From Escherichia coli (GTDB taxonomy: Bacteria; Pseudomonadota; Gammaproteobacteria; Enterobacterales; Enterobacteriaceae), in NCBI RefSeq assembly GCF_050920415.1, contig NZ_CP169309.1: 64,000 bases of DNA. The stretch is one strand, 5' to 3'. Shown in pieces: positions 851 to 62,634 of the stretch. A model generated the notes under the pieces. That model had not been told where the DNA came from and searched no databases. It saw nothing but the letters and a program-made list of their open reading frames with translations. Position numbers and translations under genes: made by a program. The stretch's first letter is position 1; each line of letters starts with the position of its first letter.

Positions 851-938
851 CAAAAATAACCATCCGGGATTATAGTCTGCGCACGCCAGCAAAATCTGGC
901 GTCGGGATTGGCGTCCCGGATAACATCACAACGCATAG

Positions 939-957
939 CCGCGTTTGCGGTTTTTTT
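939..957 (+). terminator. Putative weak intrinsic terminator downstream of int (4-bp GC stem, 7-T run)
   Basis: ccgc-gttt-gcgg followed by ttttttt about 90 nt after the int stop; stem is short so strength is uncertain. Confidence 0.3.
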
Positions 958-1056
958 GCGTTAAGCATTGCCACATTCGCATTATGGTGGGGCGTGCAGG
1001 GGCGGAGAAATCCGCGCCGGGTTTTGTGATGACCGGTTACGCCAACCCTGTACGTC

Positions 1057-1107
1057 TCACCACCTCCCTGATTGGCGTCAGAGGTGGTGATCATCCAATT
1101 AATTGGA
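1057..1107. promoter_or_regulatory. Operator-like symmetric elements upstream of rha: 10-bp inverted repeat with 14-bp spacer plus a 12-bp perfect palindrome overlapping the rha ribosome-binding site
   Basis: TCACCACCTC (1057-1066) and GAGGTGGTGA (1081-1090) are exact reverse complements; CCAATTAATTGG (1095-1106) is a perfect palindrome, with GGAG at 1105-1108. Confidence 0.35.
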
Positions 1108-15818: not shown

Positions 15819-15853
15819 TAAAAAAATCCCCGCGACACGGCATGTCGCGGGGA
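15819..15853 (-). terminator. Intrinsic terminator downstream of bhsA
   Basis: tccccgcgaca...tgtcgcgggga hairpin; the A-run on the plus strand gives a U-run on the minus strand. Confidence 0.65.
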
Positions 15854-15892
15854 AAAAAATCAGCAGTAGCAGGCATTAATGAGGGTTAATGC

Positions 15893-16150
15893 TTATTTAT
15901 AAATTACTGCTGTTCCATGGAGGGTATTCGGACCGGTTACAGAAGTAATACGGAAAGATTTTGCGCCCATCTCATCCGCTTTTTGCGCCAGCTGCTCTTC
16001 CAGCGATCCCAGATTTGTCCCCGCGTTAGCACTGATAGTACCGACTTTTTGTTGGCCTTCTGGCGTTGACTGAACTTCGACAGCCGCAAAGCTGGCAAAT
16101 GACATTGAGCTTAAAATCGCCGCAGCGATGAGGGTTTTTACGTTTTTCAT
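15893..16150 (-). CDS. bhsA: Stress/biofilm outer-membrane protein BhsA (YcfR, ComC)
   Basis: 85-aa secreted protein, YhcN/BhsA family. Confidence 0.92.
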   Translation of the reverse strand: MKNVKTLIAAAILSSMSFASFAAVEVQSTPEGQQKVGTISANAGTNLGSLEEQLAQKADEMGAKSFRITSVTGPNTLHGTAVIYK

Positions 16151-19417: not shown

Positions 19418-19499
<82 letters not shown>

Positions 19500-38490: not shown

Positions 38491-38520
38491 AGAAAAAGGC
38501 AGCCTGTGGTTGCCTTTTGC
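38491..38520. terminator. Terminator-like hairpin with flanking A/T tracts in the yceD-yceF divergent region
   Basis: aaggcagcc-tgt-ggttgcctt with one G-U pair; A-run before and T-run after. Confidence 0.3.
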
Positions 38521-38650
38521 CAATAATTCGCACACATTGCGGGTTACTGCTTTATTTTCGTTCAGTGCTGATAACGAACATCAACCTGCAAAACGAAGCG
38601 CATAGTTTAAAATGGCTATCATCAATACGCTATATCTGATGGAAAAAAAT

Positions 38651-39235
38651 ATGCCTAAACTTATTTTAGCCTCCACCTCGCCCTGGCGCCGCGCGCTACT
38701 GGAAAAACTGCAAATCTCTTTTGAATGTGCAGCACCAGAGGTCGACGAAACCCCACGCAGTGACGAATCACCGCGACAGTTGGTGCTTCGACTGGCGCAG
38801 GAAAAAGCGCAATCTCTGGCGTCACGTTATCCGGATCATTTAATTATTGGTTCAGACCAGGTATGTGTTCTTGATGGCGAAATCACCGGTAAACCGTTAA
38901 CGGAAGAAAATGCCCGTCTGCAATTACGCAAAGCCAGCGGCAATATCGTCACCTTCTATACTGGACTGGCGTTGTTTAATTCGGCGAATGGGCATCTGCA
39001 AACAGAAGTGGAGCCTTTTGACGTCCATTTCCGTCACCTGAGCGAGGCGGAGATTGATAATTACGTGCGTAAGGAGCATCCCCTGCACTGCGCGGGTAGC
39101 TTTAAGAGTGAAGGATTTGGCATTACGCTGTTTGAGCGTTTAGAAGGGCGTGACCCTAACACGCTGGTTGGTTTACCGCTAATCGCGCTGTGTCAGATGT
39201 TACGTCGGGAAGGGAAAAATCCGCTAATGGGATAG
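38651..39235 (+). CDS. yceF: Maf-family nucleoside triphosphate pyrophosphatase YceF
   Basis: 194 aa from ATG at 38651 ([14 protein letters not shown]). Confidence 0.93.
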
Positions 39236-40517: not shown

Positions 40518-40878
40518 GTTTCCGTGTCCATCCTTGTTAAAACAAGAAATTTTACGGAATAACCCATTTTGCCCGACCGATCATCCACGCAGCAATGGCG
40601 TAAGACGTATTGATCTTTCAGGCAGTTAGCGGGCTGCGGGTTGCAGTCCTTACCGGTAGATGGAAATATTTCTGGAGAGTAATACCCAGTCTGTTTCTTT
40701 GATAATTGCGCTGTTTTTCCGCATGAAAAACGGGCAACCGACACTCTGCGCCTCTTTGAGCTGACGATAACCGTGAGGTTGGCGACGCGACTAGACACGA
40801 GGCCATCGGTTCACACCCGGAAAGGCGTTACTTTGCCCGCAGCTTAGTCGTCAATGTAAGAATAATGAGTAAGTTACG
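40518..40878 (+). promoter_or_regulatory. rne long structured 5' leader (autoregulatory), approximate extent
   Basis: About 570-bp non-coding gap before rne; leader length of about 361 nt is from established knowledge, exact 5' end not determined here. Confidence 0.5.
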
Positions 40879-43800
40879 ATGAAAAGAATGTTAATCAACG
40901 CAACTCAGCAGGAAGAGTTGCGCGTTGCCCTTGTAGATGGGCAGCGTCTGTATGACCTGGATATCGAAAGTCCAGGGCACGAACAGAAAAAGGCAAACAT
41001 CTACAAAGGTAAAATCACCCGCATTGAACCGAGTCTGGAAGCTGCTTTTGTTGATTACGGCGCTGAACGTCACGGTTTCCTCCCACTTAAAGAAATTGCC
41101 CGCGAATATTTCCCTGCTAACTACAGTGCTCATGGCCGTCCCAACATTAAAGATGTGTTGCGTGAAGGTCAGGAAGTTATTGTTCAGATTGATAAAGAAG
41201 AGCGCGGTAACAAAGGCGCAGCACTGACCACCTTTATCAGCCTGGCAGGTAGCTATCTGGTTCTGATGCCAAACAACCCGCGCGCGGGTGGTATTTCTCG
41301 CCGTATTGAAGGCGACGACCGTACCGAATTAAAAGAAGCACTGGCAAGCCTTGAACTGCCGGAAGGCATGGGGCTTATCGTGCGCACCGCTGGCGTCGGC
41401 AAATCTGCAGAGGCGCTGCAATGGGATTTAAGCTTCCGCCTGAAACACTGGGAAGCTATTAAAAAAGCCGCTGAAAGCCGCCCTGCCCCGTTCCTGATCC
41501 ATCAGGAGAGCAACGTAATCGTTCGCGCATTCCGCGATTACTTACGTCAGGACATCGGCGAAATCCTTATCGATAACCCAAAAGTGCTCGAACTGGCGCG
41601 TCAGCATATCGCTGCATTAGGTCGCCCGGATTTCAGCAGCAAAATCAAGCTGTACACTGGTGAAATTCCGCTGTTCAGCCACTACCAGATCGAGTCGCAG
41701 ATCGAATCCGCCTTCCAGCGTGAAGTCCGTCTGCCGTCTGGTGGTTCTATTGTTATCGACAGCACTGAAGCGTTAACTGCCATCGATATCAACTCCGCAC
41801 GCGCGACCCGCGGCGGCGATATCGAAGAAACCGCGTTTAACACCAACCTCGAAGCTGCCGATGAGATTGCTCGTCAGCTGCGCCTGCGTGACCTCGGCGG
41901 CCTGATTGTTATCGACTTCATTGACATGACGCCAGTCCGCCACCAGCGTGCGGTAGAAAACCGTCTGCGTGAAGCGGTGCGTCAGGACCGTGCACGTATT
42001 CAAATCAGCCATATTTCTCGCTTTGGTCTGCTGGAAATGTCCCGTCAGCGGCTGAGTCCATCGCTGGGTGAATCCAGCCATCACGTCTGCCCGCGCTGCT
42101 CCGGTACCGGCACCGTGCGTGACAACGAATCCCTGTCGCTCTCTATTCTGCGTCTGATTGAAGAAGAAGCGCTGAAAGAGAACACCCAGGAAGTCCATGC
42201 CATTGTTCCTGTGCCAATCGCTTCTTACCTGCTGAACGAAAAACGCTCTGCGGTAAATGCCATTGAAACTCGTCAGGACGGCGTGCGCTGTGTGATTGTG
42301 CCAAACGATCAGATGGAAACCCCGCACTACCATGTGCTGCGCGTACGCAAAGGGGAAGAAACCCCAACCTTAAGCTACATGCTGCCGAAACTGCATGAAG
42401 AAGCGATGGCGCTGCCGTCTGAAGAAGAGTTCGCTGAACGTAAGCGTCCGGAACAACCTGCGCTGGCAACGTTTGCCATGCCGGATGTGCCGCCAGCGCC
42501 AACGCCAGCTGAACCTGCCGCGCCTGTCGCAGCCCCAGCACCTAAAGCTGCATCAACAACACCAGCAGCTCCTGCACAACCAGGGCTGTTAAGCCGCTTC
42601 TTCGGCGCACTGAAAGCGCTGTTCAGCGGTGGTGAAGAAACCAAACCGACCGAGCAACCGGCACCGAAAACTGAAACGAAACCGGAACGTCAACAGGACC
42701 GCCGTAAGCCACGTCAGAACAACCGTCGTGACCGAAATGAACGCCGCGACACACGTAGCGAACGTAATGAAGGCAGCGATAATCGCGAAGAAAACCGCCG
42801 TAATCGTCGCCAGGCACAGCAGCAGACTGCCGAGACGCGTGAGAGCCGTCAGCAGGCTGAGGTAACGGAAAAAGCGCGTACCACCGACGAGCAGCAAGCG
42901 CCGCGTCGTGAACGTAGCCGCCGCCGTAATGATGATAAACGTCAGGCGCAACAAGAAGCGAAAGCGCTAAATGTTGAAGAGCAATCTGTTCAGGAAACCG
43001 AACAGGAAGAACGTGTACGTCCGGTTCAGCCGCGTCGTAAACAGCGCCAGCTGAATCAGAAAGTGCGTTACGAGCAAAGCGTAGCCGAAGAAACGGTAGC
43101 CGCACCAGTGGTTGAAGAAACTGCCGCTGCCGAAACCATCGTTCAGGAAGTGCCTGCTCCGCGTACAGAACTGGCGAAAGTCCCGCTGCCAGTCGTAGCG
43201 CAAACTGCGCCGGAACAGCAGGAAGAGAACAATGCTGATAACCGTGATAACGGTGGCATGCCGCGTCGCTCTCGCCGCTCGCCTCGTCACCTGCGCGTAA
43301 GTGGTCAGCGTCGTCGTCGCTATCGTGACGAGCGTTACCCGACCCAGTCGCCAATGCCGTTAACCGTAGCGTGCGCGTCTCCGGAACTGGCCTCTGGCAA
43401 AGTCTGGATCCGCTATCCGATTGTACGTCCGCAAGATGTACAGGTTGAAGAGCAGCGCGAACAGGAAGAAGTACAAGTGCAACCGATGGTGACTGAGGTC
43501 CCTGTCGCCGCCGCTGTCGAACCGGTTGTTAGCGCACCGATTGTTGAAGAAGTGGCTGAAGTCGTAGAAGCCCCCGTTCAGGTTACCGAACCGCAACCGG
43601 AAGTGGTTGAAACGACGCATCCTGAAGTGATTGCCGCCGCGGTAACTGAACAGCCGCAGGTGATTACCGAGTCTGATGTTGCCGTAGCCCAGGAAGTTGC
43701 AGAACACGCAGAACCGGTGGTTGAACCGCAGGAAGAGACGGCTGATATTGAAGAAGTTGCCGAAACTGCTGAGGTTGTGGTTGCTGAGCCTGAAGTTGTT

Positions 43801-44064
43801 GCTCAACCTGCCGCGCCAGTCGTCGCTGAAGTCGCAGCAGAAGTTGAAACGGTAGCTGCGGTTGAACCTGAGGTCACCGTTGAGCATAACCACGCTACCG
43901 CGCCAATGACGCGCGCTCCGGCACCGGAATATGTTCCGGAGGCACCGCGTCACAGTGACTGGCAGCGCCCTACTTTTGCCTTCGAAGGTAAAGGTGCTGC
44001 AGGTGGTCATACGGCAACGCATCATGCATCTGCCGCGCCTGCGCGTCCGCAACCTGTTGAGTAA
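40879..44064 (+). CDS. rne: Ribonuclease E
   Basis: 1061 aa; N-terminal S1/catalytic domain, Arg-rich and acidic low-complexity C-terminal scaffold. Confidence 0.98.
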
Positions 44065-44084
44065 TAATTAGCTCAAGTAATCAA

Positions 44085-44112
44085 GCCCTGGTAACTGCCA
44101 GGGCTTTTTTAT
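44085..44112 (+). terminator. Intrinsic terminator after rne
   Basis: gccctgg-taactg-ccagggc followed by a T6 run. Confidence 0.8.
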
Positions 44113-44181
44113 TTCATCTTTAAATCAACATATTAAAATTCATCGAATGGCATCCTTGCTAACCAACAATACAAAATAGGC

Positions 44182-44258
44182 AAAAAAATGCCCGCCCCGG
44201 CGATCCCAGAGCGGGCAGACAAAACATACCCAGTTTCATGATATGTTTTAAAGCGAGC
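44182..44258 (-). ncRNA. flgO: flgL 3' UTR with terminator; region of the 3'UTR-derived sRNA FlgO
   Basis: About 77-nt 3' UTR ending in tgcccgc...gcgggca hairpin plus U-run; sRNA identity is by position and recalled literature, ends not defined. Confidence 0.3.
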
Positions 44259-45212
44259 TTATTTGTTGAGCTGGAAGAGCGACAATCCCTGCATATCGGT
44301 AAATGCTTTATACGATGCCTGCAATGCCGTTTGCTGCATGATGTAAGATGAAATAGTTGCATTCCAGTCCACATCAACCAGATCGCTCATCTGCTGCGTT
44401 TGCCCTAAAGCGCGATCGCTACCTAATGAATCCAGCGACTCCAGTTCGTTCAGCTGCGTGCCTAATTCCGCGCGAACGGTCAGCACATTGTTCAGCGAGT
44501 TTTTCAGTCCGCGGTTGGTTTTATCCAGTGCCGCAGCGGTGGTTTCTTTATCCGCTTCGCTTTCCGCGACCGGCGTTTTCAGGGCTGCGATGGCGCTATC
44601 CAGCATGGCAAAAAGATTGGTTTCAGAAGCGCTACCGTCTGGTTCCGCTACCGCGTTGCTGGTAATACTGTCGAAAATTTTGTCACCCGTGTGCCCTATC
44701 ACCATCGAACGCGAAGCATCGACCTGTTGTTTAATACTTTCTGCTCCGCCAACATATTCGCCGTCTGCCTCACTAAACGGCGCAGTTTCTGTTTTATAAC
44801 CGGCAAAAATGTAGCGCCCGTTACCATCCGTAGTGTTCGCCAGATTCAGCAACTGGTCACGAATACCCTGGATATCGGTTGCCAACGACGCCCGGTCATC
44901 ATCACTCAAGGTGCCATTGCTGGCGTAGACAATTTTTTCCTGAGCATTCTGGATAGCAGTGGTGACCTGGCTAAGCACACTCTCTTCCAGTGACACTTTT
45001 TGAGTGGCGAAAGTACGCGCCAGCGTGTACTGACTGTTTTGCGCCTGTGCCTGGGAGAGAACAACAGCTTGTGATGCAGCAATGGGATCATCTGAAGGGT
45101 TAACGACTCGCTTACCCGTCGACATCTGTTCGCCGTACTTCATCCATTCGGCCTGAGAATTGGTGATGCCACGCATGTTTTGCTGGTACATCATCTGGGT
45201 ACTGAAACGCAT
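44259..45212 (-). CDS. flgL: Flagellar hook-filament junction protein FlgL
   Basis: 317 aa. Confidence 0.96.
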   Translation of the reverse strand: MRFSTQMMYQQNMRGITNSQAEWMKYGEQMSTGKRVVNPSDDPIAASQAVVLSQAQAQNSQYTLARTFATQKVSLEESVLSQVTTAIQNAQEKIVYASNGTLSDDDRASLATDIQGIRDQLLNLANTTDGNGRYIFAGYKTETAPFSEADGEYVGGAESIKQQVDASRSMVIGHTGDKIFDSITSNAVAEPDGSASETNLFAMLDSAIAALKTPVAESEADKETTAAALDKTNRGLKNSLNNVLTVRAELGTQLNELESLDSLGSDRALGQTQQMSDLVDVDWNATISSYIMQQTALQASYKAFTDMQGLSLFQLNK

Positions 45213-45223
45213 TTTATCTCCCC

Positions 45224-46867
45224 TTAACGAATGTTAATCAGCGCATCAAAAATCGCGTTTGCCGTCTGCAGAACCTGTGCATTCGCCAGATAATACTGCT
45301 GAAAACGTTGCAGATTTCCGTACTCCTCATCGAGATTGACACCGGAAATCGACTGCTGCTGATTGGAAAGCTGCGTTACCACATTACCTTGCGTGGTGCT
45401 ACTGGTTTTCAACGTCGCGGTTTTATTACCGATATCACTCACTAACGATGCATAAGCGTCGTTAAAGGATTTCGCACCGCCCACCGTTTTACTGTTGCTT
45501 TGCAGATCCAGCAGGGCCTGACCGTTGCGGTTGTCGCTATCACCCGCATCTTCTTCGCTCGCCATGGCGATTTTCGCTTCGTCAGTGATTAATACATCCA
45601 TGTTGACGATGGCGTCACTTACCGGTTTCAGCGTGAAGCTGTCGTTAACGGCAGGCGTTCCTGTAAACGTCAACTCCAGACCATCAAATGCCACTTTACC
45701 GTTGGCATCCGGCGTCACCGTAAAAGTGGTATTGCTGGCAAGGCGGGTGACCTGCCACTGATTATTATCGAACGAGATTTTGTAATCTGTCGCCAGTACC
45801 GCGGAGGCATCAGTTACCGTGGCACCGATCGCAACGTCACCGTTGTTTTTAGTGTTTTGCAGAACCGCGGGCTTACCGATAGCAAAGAAATCTTCACCGG
45901 CATCGCCGTTAGCATCAAATCCGGCTTTGTGTTGGGTGTTGAAAGCCTCGGCAAATGCCAGCGCCAGTTGTCCGAGCGTATTACGCGTCTGGTCCAGATC
46001 CTGAGAACGGAATGTCAGAATGCCGCCCAGTGACCCGGTATTCAGCAATTTCTCCGGGATCTCAAGATTGCCCGCAGTCCCATCAACATAAGCGACAGTC
46101 GTACGAGAAGGGTCGGCGCTGGAAGGAACTGCCGCTAGCTGCCGCGCCGTACTACCCTGAACCAGTGAGTAACCATTGGCCATCGTGATGTTATAAGTGC
46201 CGCCATCCTGAACGCTGACTTCTACACCAACAATCTGGTTTAATTCGCTCACCAGTTGATCGCGTTGATCCAACAGATTGTTAGGTGACGCCCCTGCTCC
46301 CACGCCTGTCAGACGGGAGATTTGATCGTTCAGGCTGGCGATTTGTTTAGCGTAATTGTTGATCTGATCAACGCTGGCACCTATCGCGATATTGACCTGT
46401 TTGTCCTGGTCGCGCAGATATTGATCGGTGGTTTTAAACTGATTCACCAACCCTTCTGATTTCCCAATCAGCGCCTGGCGTGCTGCCGGGTCTTCCGCGT
46501 TACTTACCAGCGTTTGCAGGCTTGTGAAGAAATCCTGCATCTGTGTTGCCAGCGAAGAGGTACTGGTGGAGAGCATATTGTCGATTTTCGACATCTGCTC
46601 ATAGCGGGCAGTCAGGCCGCTACTTTGCGTCTGCGCAGCACGTAACTGGTTGGTAATAAACGCATCATACTCACGCTGCACACCAGAAACGTAGACGCCA
46701 TTGCCAACCCAGCCGCCAGCGCCCAACGTGCTATTGGCCTGCGCCATAATAGTGGTTTGGCGGGTATATCCGGCAACGTTATAGCTGGAGATATTATTAC
46801 TTGCCGTATTTAACGCCGCCTGGGCCGCGTTCAGTCCGCTCATGGCGTTATTGATCAAGCTGGACAT
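45224..46867 (-). CDS. flgK: Flagellar hook-associated protein 1 FlgK
   Basis: 547 aa. Confidence 0.96.
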   Translation of the reverse strand: MSSLINNAMSGLNAAQAALNTASNNISSYNVAGYTRQTTIMAQANSTLGAGGWVGNGVYVSGVQREYDAFITNQLRAAQTQSSGLTARYEQMSKIDNMLSTSTSSLATQMQDFFTSLQTLVSNAEDPAARQALIGKSEGLVNQFKTTDQYLRDQDKQVNIAIGASVDQINNYAKQIASLNDQISRLTGVGAGASPNNLLDQRDQLVSELNQIVGVEVSVQDGGTYNITMANGYSLVQGSTARQLAAVPSSADPSRTTVAYVDGTAGNLEIPEKLLNTGSLGGILTFRSQDLDQTRNTLGQLALAFAEAFNTQHKAGFDANGDAGEDFFAIGKPAVLQNTKNNGDVAIGATVTDASAVLATDYKISFDNNQWQVTRLASNTTFTVTPDANGKVAFDGLELTFTGTPAVNDSFTLKPVSDAIVNMDVLITDEAKIAMASEEDAGDSDNRNGQALLDLQSNSKTVGGAKSFNDAYASLVSDIGNKTATLKTSSTTQGNVVTQLSNQQQSISGVNLDEEYGNLQRFQQYYLANAQVLQTANAIFDALINIR

Positions 46868-46900: not shown

Positions 46901-46927
46901 TTATCGGCAGCGACCCGCCGGACTTGA
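46901..46927 (-). promoter_or_regulatory. Putative sigma28 (class 3) promoter for flgKL
   Basis: Minus strand TCAAGTCC-N11-GCCGATAA; the -10 element is a perfect match, the -35 matches 5 of 8. Confidence 0.4.
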
Positions 46928-55043: not shown

Positions 55044-55070
55044 TAAAGATTACCCGTCCCTTGCCGATAA
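55044..55070 (+). promoter_or_regulatory. sigma28 (FliA) class 3 promoter for flgMN
   Basis: TAAAGATT-N11-GCCGATAA, near-perfect match to the TAAAGTTT-N11-GCCGATAA consensus, about 45 bp upstream of flgM. Confidence 0.8.
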
Positions 55071-62529: not shown

Positions 62530-62634
62530 TCACGAGGGCGCATTTGCGCCCTTTATTTTTCGTGCAAAGGAAAACGTTTCCGCTTATCCTTTGTGTCCGG
62601 CAAAAACATCCCTTCAGCCGGAGCATAGAGATTA

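Follow-up and report, generated by a model that had tools for sequence, protein, structure and literature searches.

The window analysed here, a stretch of 64,000 nt of Escherichia coli DNA, carries a minus-strand flg cluster in which flgJ lies upstream of flgK, together with a plus-strand rne gene (40879..44064) that converges on this cluster. On the same strand as flgL, directly downstream of its stop codon and with its 3′ end at the flgL intrinsic terminator, lies the segment 44259..44182, which, by its sequence, is almost certainly flgO, the gene segment of the known small RNA FlgO. The features of the locus are as follows.

46901..46927, minus strand: sigma28-type promoter motif ahead of flgK, reading TCAAGTCC-N11-GCCGATAA and perfect in its −10 element, assigned by motif match alone
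45224..46867, minus strand: flgK coding sequence, the first gene of the flgKL transcript
44259..45212, minus strand: coding sequence of the parent gene flgL, 317 amino acids, with its TAA stop at 44261..44259
44182..44259, minus strand: flgO (FlgO sRNA), 78 nt, assigned by homology to K-12 b4826, beginning on the final A of the flgL stop codon and ending on the final U of the terminator tail
44251..44259, minus strand: 5′ single-stranded tail AGCUCGCUU, holding two of the four differences from K-12 (GC for UU at nt 2–3)
44220..44250, minus strand: stem-loop SL1, with an 11-bp stem here (nine pairs conserved) and a 9-nt loop, AUGAAACUG, at 44239..44231
44219..44241, minus strand: predicted base-pairing (seed) region, FlgO nt 19–41, made up of the SL1 loop and 3′ arm and the same in K-12 and the window
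44217..44189, minus strand: intrinsic terminator hairpin TGCCCGCTCTGG-GATCG-CCGGGGCGGGCA, 12 bp (nine of them G-C) with the 5-nt loop GAUCG
44182..44188, minus strand: U7 terminator tail (TTTTTTT), its U-run invariant in alignment A2 (see below)
44083..44106, plus strand: intrinsic terminator of rne, a 10-bp stem followed by a T-run

On the minus strand, flgL finishes with ...CAACAAATAA and the sequence continues as GCUCGCUUUAAAACAUAUCAUGAAACUGGGUAUGUUUUGUCUGCCCGCUCUGGGAUCGCCGGGGCGGGCAUUUUUUU. The window is chromosomal DNA of a non-K-12 strain, and around FlgO it shows 100% identity to strains such as Nissle 1917 and CFT073 and to their relatives. Because each has its own terminator flanking 44107..44181, the convergent rne and flgL/FlgO transcripts end on either side of this AT-rich gap, with 75 nt between the rne terminator and the FlgO 3′ end. 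A bidirectional terminator serving rne was considered and rejected, since rne has its own and the FlgO hairpin is without a T-run on the plus strand. RNA elements matched elsewhere in the window include the SraB sRNA (Rfam; 38489..38657, minus strand, 209.8 bits) and rne5, the RNase E 5′ UTR autoregulatory element (40518..40854, plus strand, 260.1 bits), both in their expected places, as well as the nucleoid-associated RNA naRNA4 (19421..19496, minus strand) and the PyrC leader (62585..62634, plus strand). At 870..1067 on the plus strand, adjacent gathering-level Rfam matches to isrK, C4 antisense RNA, and the c4 a1/b1 targets mark a phage P1/P7-type immunity RNA module, which suggests prophage DNA at the start of the window.

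Aligned with K-12 flgO (b4826), window positions 44259..44182 (minus strand) are identical at 74 of 78 nucleotides without a gap. RefSeq annotates this gene in MG1655 as an ncRNA ("small RNA FlgO") at NC_000913.3 1,140,986–1,141,063, its first base being the last base of the flgL stop codon. The FlgO coordinates in Table 2A of Bar et al. 2021 (PMC8175672) are identical to these, and the 5′ end of cloning primer SM041 (Melamed et al. 2023, eLife 12:RP87151, PMC10578931) is that same start base. The covariance model R1, described below, scores 83.4 bits at this position. A sequence-only reading of the locus had named the flgL 3′ UTR as the likely source of FlgO by position; the alignment to published FlgO, which it had proposed as a check, now gives that identity a sequence basis, and the published coordinates map to this site and not elsewhere. 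Its description of a flgL stop followed by a hairpin and a U-run is borne out (TAA at 44261..44259, GC-rich hairpin at 44217..44189, U7 at 44188..44182), and the sigma28-dependent sRNA from the flgL 3′ UTR that it cited as already described corresponds to the processed, Hfq-bound, approximately 75-nt doublet of K-12 FlgO (PMC10578931). One figure needs amending: 77 nt is exactly the length of the interval 44182..44258, from the first base past the flgL stop to the last U, with hairpin and U-run included, and not the distance from stop to hairpin, which begins 41 nt after the stop. The upstream hairpin SL1 (44250..44220) was absent from that reading.

FlgO is already known, having first been published in 2020–2023 as an RNA cut from the end of the flgL message. 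Since the stretch after flgL is the E. coli copy of this published sRNA, the finding is correct but not new, and as a re-identification it carries little weight as a discovery; what is added is confirmation of identity by sequence, a structure and family model supported by covariation, and a testable prediction of seed and targets. A gathering-mode Rfam scan of the whole window gave no match at the FlgO position, and an E-value-mode scan of 43500..45500 with Rfam 15 gave only sub-threshold, terminator-driven matches (anti-hemB, L20 leader, BSnc120, and others), the best overlap being anti-hemB at 17.6 bits against a threshold of 49.5. FlgO appears to be without a family in Rfam 15, and flgO was left unannotated in the single non-K-12 (PGAP) record inspected. 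Literature searches can also be misled by a clash of names with the FlgO protein of Vibrio (flgOP), an outer-membrane flagellar protein encoded by an unrelated gene, which has the name alone in common with the sRNA.

In K-12, FlgO falls sharply in a fliA deletion, which establishes its sigma28 dependence, and its level peaks late, along with that of FliX (PMC10578931). It runs as a doublet of about 75 nt and is depleted by a 5′-phosphate-dependent exonuclease, and is therefore a processed RNA; the paper names no nuclease for its release (PMC10578931). It ranked fourth among Hfq-enriched sRNAs, with Hfq binding published for K-12, EPEC, and Salmonella, yet among the four sigma28-dependent sRNAs it has the fewest RIL-seq partners, these being condition-specific and gatC the sole one found in four conditions (PMC10578931). 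Overexpression left flagella number and motility unchanged, and the authors suggested that FlgO may not be a conventional base-pairing sRNA, naming Hfq titration or protein recruitment as possibilities (PMC10578931). A RIL-seq-based classifier gave FlgO a low score as an sRNA (0.07–0.15), in a listing where FliX, NarS, and MalH appear beside it (PMC8175672).

The 78-nt FlgO of the window folds at −33.6 kcal/mol, compared with −19.5 ± 2.8 for 200 dinucleotide shuffles, none of which is as good; with z = −5.1, it folds beyond chance. The fold comprises two hairpins, SL1 followed by the terminator with its U tail, and the terminator hairpin is common to the flgL mRNA and FlgO. The U7 tail is the expected binding site for the Hfq proximal face. 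Four substitutions separate the window allele from that of K-12, two at nt 2–3 (GC in the window, UU in K-12) and two in the terminator stem, where the window has G-C and K-12 has G-U. Because these differences swap G-C and G-U, stem pairing is kept in both alleles, and their dot-bracket structures are identical, with the window allele the more stable (−33.6 versus −28.5 kcal/mol). Among 5426 complete E. coli genomes, 5424 carry a single copy of FlgO and two give no match; the exact window allele occurs in 1288 and the exact K-12 allele in 1593. Five of the approximately 5424 matches lie on records typed as plasmids.

For a broader survey, we compared the DNA past each flgL stop codon in the loci of 80 Enterobacteriaceae species representatives (FlgL identity 66–97%); alignment A2 holds 75 sequences, and per-column conservation was computed from 72 distinct ones. 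The order of elements is the same in most loci: first a U-rich tract, then a hairpin whose loop reads NUGAAACUGG, and, after a short linker, a GC-rich terminator followed by a U-run. The RNAalifold consensus of A2 contains 18 pairs, 14 with compensatory changes (8 of 9 in SL1 and 6 of 9 in the terminator). Pairing cells amount to 97.5%, against 87.4% in column shuffles and 25–53% with partners slid; none of 500 shuffles reaches any of five pairing measures, although these counts are not probabilities because the species in A2 are related. Even so, the controls with slid partners and the many different pair types argue for a real structural constraint on FlgO. The SL1 loop, UGAAACUG, is 82–100% conserved (U.82, G.99, A.99, A 1.00, A.97, C.96, U.85, G.92) and no other single-stranded segment is conserved; the 5′ tail varies freely except for an invariant UU just 5′ of SL1, and the DNA past the U-run also diverges freely. 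SL1 follows the stop directly in most species, with the distance ranging from 9 to more than 70 nt (e.g., Intestinirhabdus, locus L027).

The terminator loop is more variable at the genus level. In Citrobacter, Salmonella, Buttiauxella, Kluyvera, Kosakonia, Cedecea, and Atlantibacter it reads CACCCC(GG) (A2 columns 73–79; L007–L079), which is replaced in Escherichia (by GAUCG) and in the Enterobacter/Lelliottia/Leclercia group; this agrees with the authors' remark that one FlgO loop differs in Salmonella (PMC10578931). Outside Escherichia, this conserved C-rich loop, carried on a stem that covaries, could serve as a second functional site.

Searched against the same loci, R1 gives a single full-length FlgO-like match, placed immediately past flgL, in each of 77 out of 80 (30.9–94.4 bits), including L033 and L066, which are both outside the model seed. 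It finds no match in three Pseudocitrobacter loci (L021, L023, L025) and merely marginal ones in L056 and L080; all five carry another hairpin or terminator after the flgL stop and no FlgO-like element, which means that a few lineages have lost FlgO or replaced it. Neither the loci nor the window gave a second match of comparable kind, and A2 and R1 show that a FlgO family is definable. The second R1 match in the window, at 15820..15893 (minus strand, 28 bits), was rejected as FlgO, being a GC-rich terminator with a T-run and no SL1-like loop; it follows an 85-aa ORF (16150..15893) and was judged a terminator-driven false positive. Among the surveyed loci, L059 (CACSKA010000011.1), labelled Chryseobacterium sp. 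18061, has an Enterobacteriaceae-type flgL-FlgO locus near-identical to that of Citrobacter sp. 18056 (L058), and this assembly is probably mislabelled or contaminated.

An AUG within the SL1 loop (44239..44237) opens a 26-codon frame, which raises the question of a small protein. We rejected this candidate and give it a negligible probability, as it has no Shine-Dalgarno sequence and no in-frame stop before the 3′ end of the transcript, its start reads AUG, UUG, GUG, CUG, ACG, AAG, or UGG across species, and one-base indels in the linker shift the frame.

With regard to biogenesis, flgK is known to have a class 3 promoter, and sigma28-dependent transcription of flgKL-FlgO probably starts from the sigma28-type motif upstream of this gene. 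Simple consensus scans recovered neither a sigma70-like site within 43800..44600 nor a sigma28 motif close to the flgL 3′ end; this lack of a promoter-like site and the motif upstream of flgK both fit release from the flgKL mRNA. It is accordingly very unlikely that a separate promoter within the 3′ end of flgL produces FlgO as a primary transcript: the scans speak against it, we found no point in its favour, and the depletion by 5′-phosphate-dependent exonuclease indicates processing (PMC10578931). The best match to the sigma28 consensus in the window lies elsewhere, at 55044..55070 on the plus strand (TAAAGATT-N11-GCCGATAA, one mismatch), just past flgA and upstream of flgM. This is the position of the known class 3 flgMN promoter.

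RNase E reportedly cuts at RN|WUU with a preference for U at +2 (Salmonella TIER-seq). The context of the mapped 5′ end in K-12, UA|AUUU, fits this preference in part, and the same position in the window reads UA|AGCU, while a well-fitting site, GC|UUUA, lies 7 nt downstream of the mapped end in both alleles. Cleavage at two sites could underlie the published doublet, with the shorter form possibly favoured by the window allele. Given that the window and K-12 alleles are unlike at the mapped 5′ end, E. coli lineages may not all share one processed end.

In the mechanism that we propose, the flgKL mRNA would be transcribed from the sigma28 promoter upstream of flgK and end at the intrinsic terminator (44217..44182); a further source of flgKL mRNA is read-through from the class 2 flgB operon. 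An endonuclease, presumably RNase E, would cut at or just past the flgL stop codon, releasing a 5′-monophosphate RNA of about 78 nt that consists of the short tail, SL1, the terminator hairpin, and U7. The released FlgO would be bound by Hfq, and the SL1 loop would then nucleate pairing that extends into the SL1 3′ arm, with predicted targets inside mRNAs such as gatC. Taken as a whole, this explanation, with the known FlgO derived from the flgKL mRNA at its core, is one that we hold with high confidence; its pairing step is rated lower, as set out below.

The pairing step was examined with a candidate seed set a priori as the conserved SL1 loop, using FlgO nt 19–35 and comparing the 15 sense-strand partners in the published RIL-seq table with 63 other E. 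coli genes from the window and K-12 loci, a small and local background. Hybridisation z-scores averaged −0.87 for partners and +0.18 for the background (Mann–Whitney p = 1.5e-4), and the enrichment persisted after length regression of the energy (p = 0.0026). The only other 17-nt windows of FlgO below 0.05 were the overlapping 21–37 (p = 0.006) and 25–41 (p = 0.0095), and none of 60 composition-matched shuffled seeds reached the partner enrichment. Among the 15 partners, single-target scores were non-significant apart from gatC and, marginally, msrB, which has a 10-bp match to GAAACUGGGU (p = 0.013–0.037); for ptsG, a 9-bp match lies immediately 5′ of the Shine-Dalgarno sequence (p about 0.1). 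Whole-molecule duplexes of FlgO with the ptsG leader and flgA were dropped, as nearly all 78 nt were paired via long loops, with p = 0.07–0.10 against shuffles. In the window, the exact complement of the SL1 loop (CCAGTTTCA) occurs nowhere except on the opposite strand of FlgO itself.

The predicted gatC duplex joins gatC nt 1244–1264 to FlgO nt 21–41 through 20 bp at −25.1 kcal/mol, arranged as 11 bp, a U/U 1x1 loop, and 9 bp, with three G-U pairs; its formation at full length requires SL1 to open. Tested with FlgO nt 19–41, it was matched by none of 1000 dinucleotide shuffles of gatC (z = −4.9), and it is the best non-self site in 164 real E. coli chunks (223 kb). Of the 5426 complete E. coli genomes, 5075 contain the gatC segment; NZ_CP025916.1 carries the window FlgO allele together with the K-12 gatC site. 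In MG1655, the gat operon (L083, NC_000913.3 2169000-2179000) has gatC annotated as a pseudogene and gatR split by IS3 (IS3E). Because gatR is interrupted, gat mRNA is constitutively high in this strain; the most frequent FlgO partner thus comes from a constitutive, partly defective operon of a laboratory strain, and its abundance could inflate the chimera counts.

These data bear on several accounts of what FlgO does. It might have no function of its own, the flgL terminator and 3′ UTR being all that matters and the 78-nt RNA a decay remnant protected by the terminator hairpin and Hfq. The absence of an overexpression phenotype and the few, condition-specific partners (PMC10578931) point that way, as does the low classifier score of 0.07–0.15 (PMC8175672). 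Nevertheless, we regard it as unlikely: SL1 is dispensable for termination, yet 8 of its 9 pairs are compensated and its loop is near-invariant across many Enterobacteriaceae genera, whereas the 5′ tail and the DNA past the U-run diverge freely; nor would the long gatC complementarity be expected by chance. The same conservation pattern would be expected if SL1 were a cis element of the flgKL mRNA, either a stability or processing determinant or a protein-binding site, with the fragment incidental. The location of SL1 directly after the stop in most species suits this idea, as does the fact that the flgL mRNA itself, as the annotated CDS, is a RIL-seq partner of UhpU. It is made distinctly improbable by the variation of the stop-to-SL1 distance from 9 to more than 70 nt, by the accumulation of the fragment on Hfq (PMC10578931), and by no cis effect having been reported.

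The authors' own proposal is that FlgO works through occupancy of Hfq and not through pairing, by titrating Hfq or recruiting a protein late in flagellar assembly. This would reconcile its fourth rank in Hfq enrichment with its few partners (PMC10578931), and the strong terminator with its U7 tail and the U-rich tract adjoining the hairpin are consistent with it. As an alternative to pairing we nonetheless find it rather doubtful, since titration would select Hfq-binding features and not a specific 8-nt loop sequence, the loop contains a single ARN triplet, and partner complementarity maps specifically to the loop and the 3′ arm; Hfq occupancy and base pairing are, in any case, not mutually exclusive. 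For base pairing itself, the enrichment and duplex predictions lead us to a tentative position. That FlgO may act at least partly in this manner, the SL1 loop nucleating and the SL1 3′ arm following (nt 21–41), we rate at only a little under an even chance. Somewhat less probable is the fuller proposal that it would be a conventional base-pairing sRNA, with UGAAACUG as seed, pairing that extends into the SL1 3′ arm, and target sites within the coding sequence or leader of mRNAs for sugar uptake and carbon metabolism, foremost gatC and perhaps also ptsG, ptsH, and lamB.

If conventional pairing holds, the last stage of flagellar assembly would be tied to carbohydrate transport, and the conservation of the loop in genera well beyond Escherichia would imply an older core target. 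Of the four sigma28-dependent sRNAs, FlgO alone has no known function, and the near-constant loop on a covarying stem, together with the specific 20-bp gatC match, supplies a concrete mutation and a concrete site to test.

Compared with known systems, FlgO of the window resembles K-12 FlgO in its locus after flgL, its convergence with rne, and its two hairpins followed by U7. UhpU, MotR, and FliX belong to the same sigma28 regulon, were reported in the same paper, and are all Hfq-bound like FlgO, but they alter flagellin level, flagella number, or motility, whereas FlgO did not in the assays used. More broadly, processed 3′UTR-derived Hfq sRNAs such as CpxQ, SdhX, NarS, MalH, and FliX share the terminator of their parent mRNA; members of this class have no promoter of their own, are released by cleavage near the stop codon, and combine a U-tailed, Hfq-type terminator with a conserved short single-stranded segment. 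FlgO differs from them in having no validated target or phenotype so far, and in carrying its candidate seed in a hairpin loop and the adjoining arm instead of an open 5′ region. It agrees with the class in that the simple consensus scans recovered no promoter of its own, in its release near the stop codon, in its terminator with a U tail, and in its conserved single-stranded segment.
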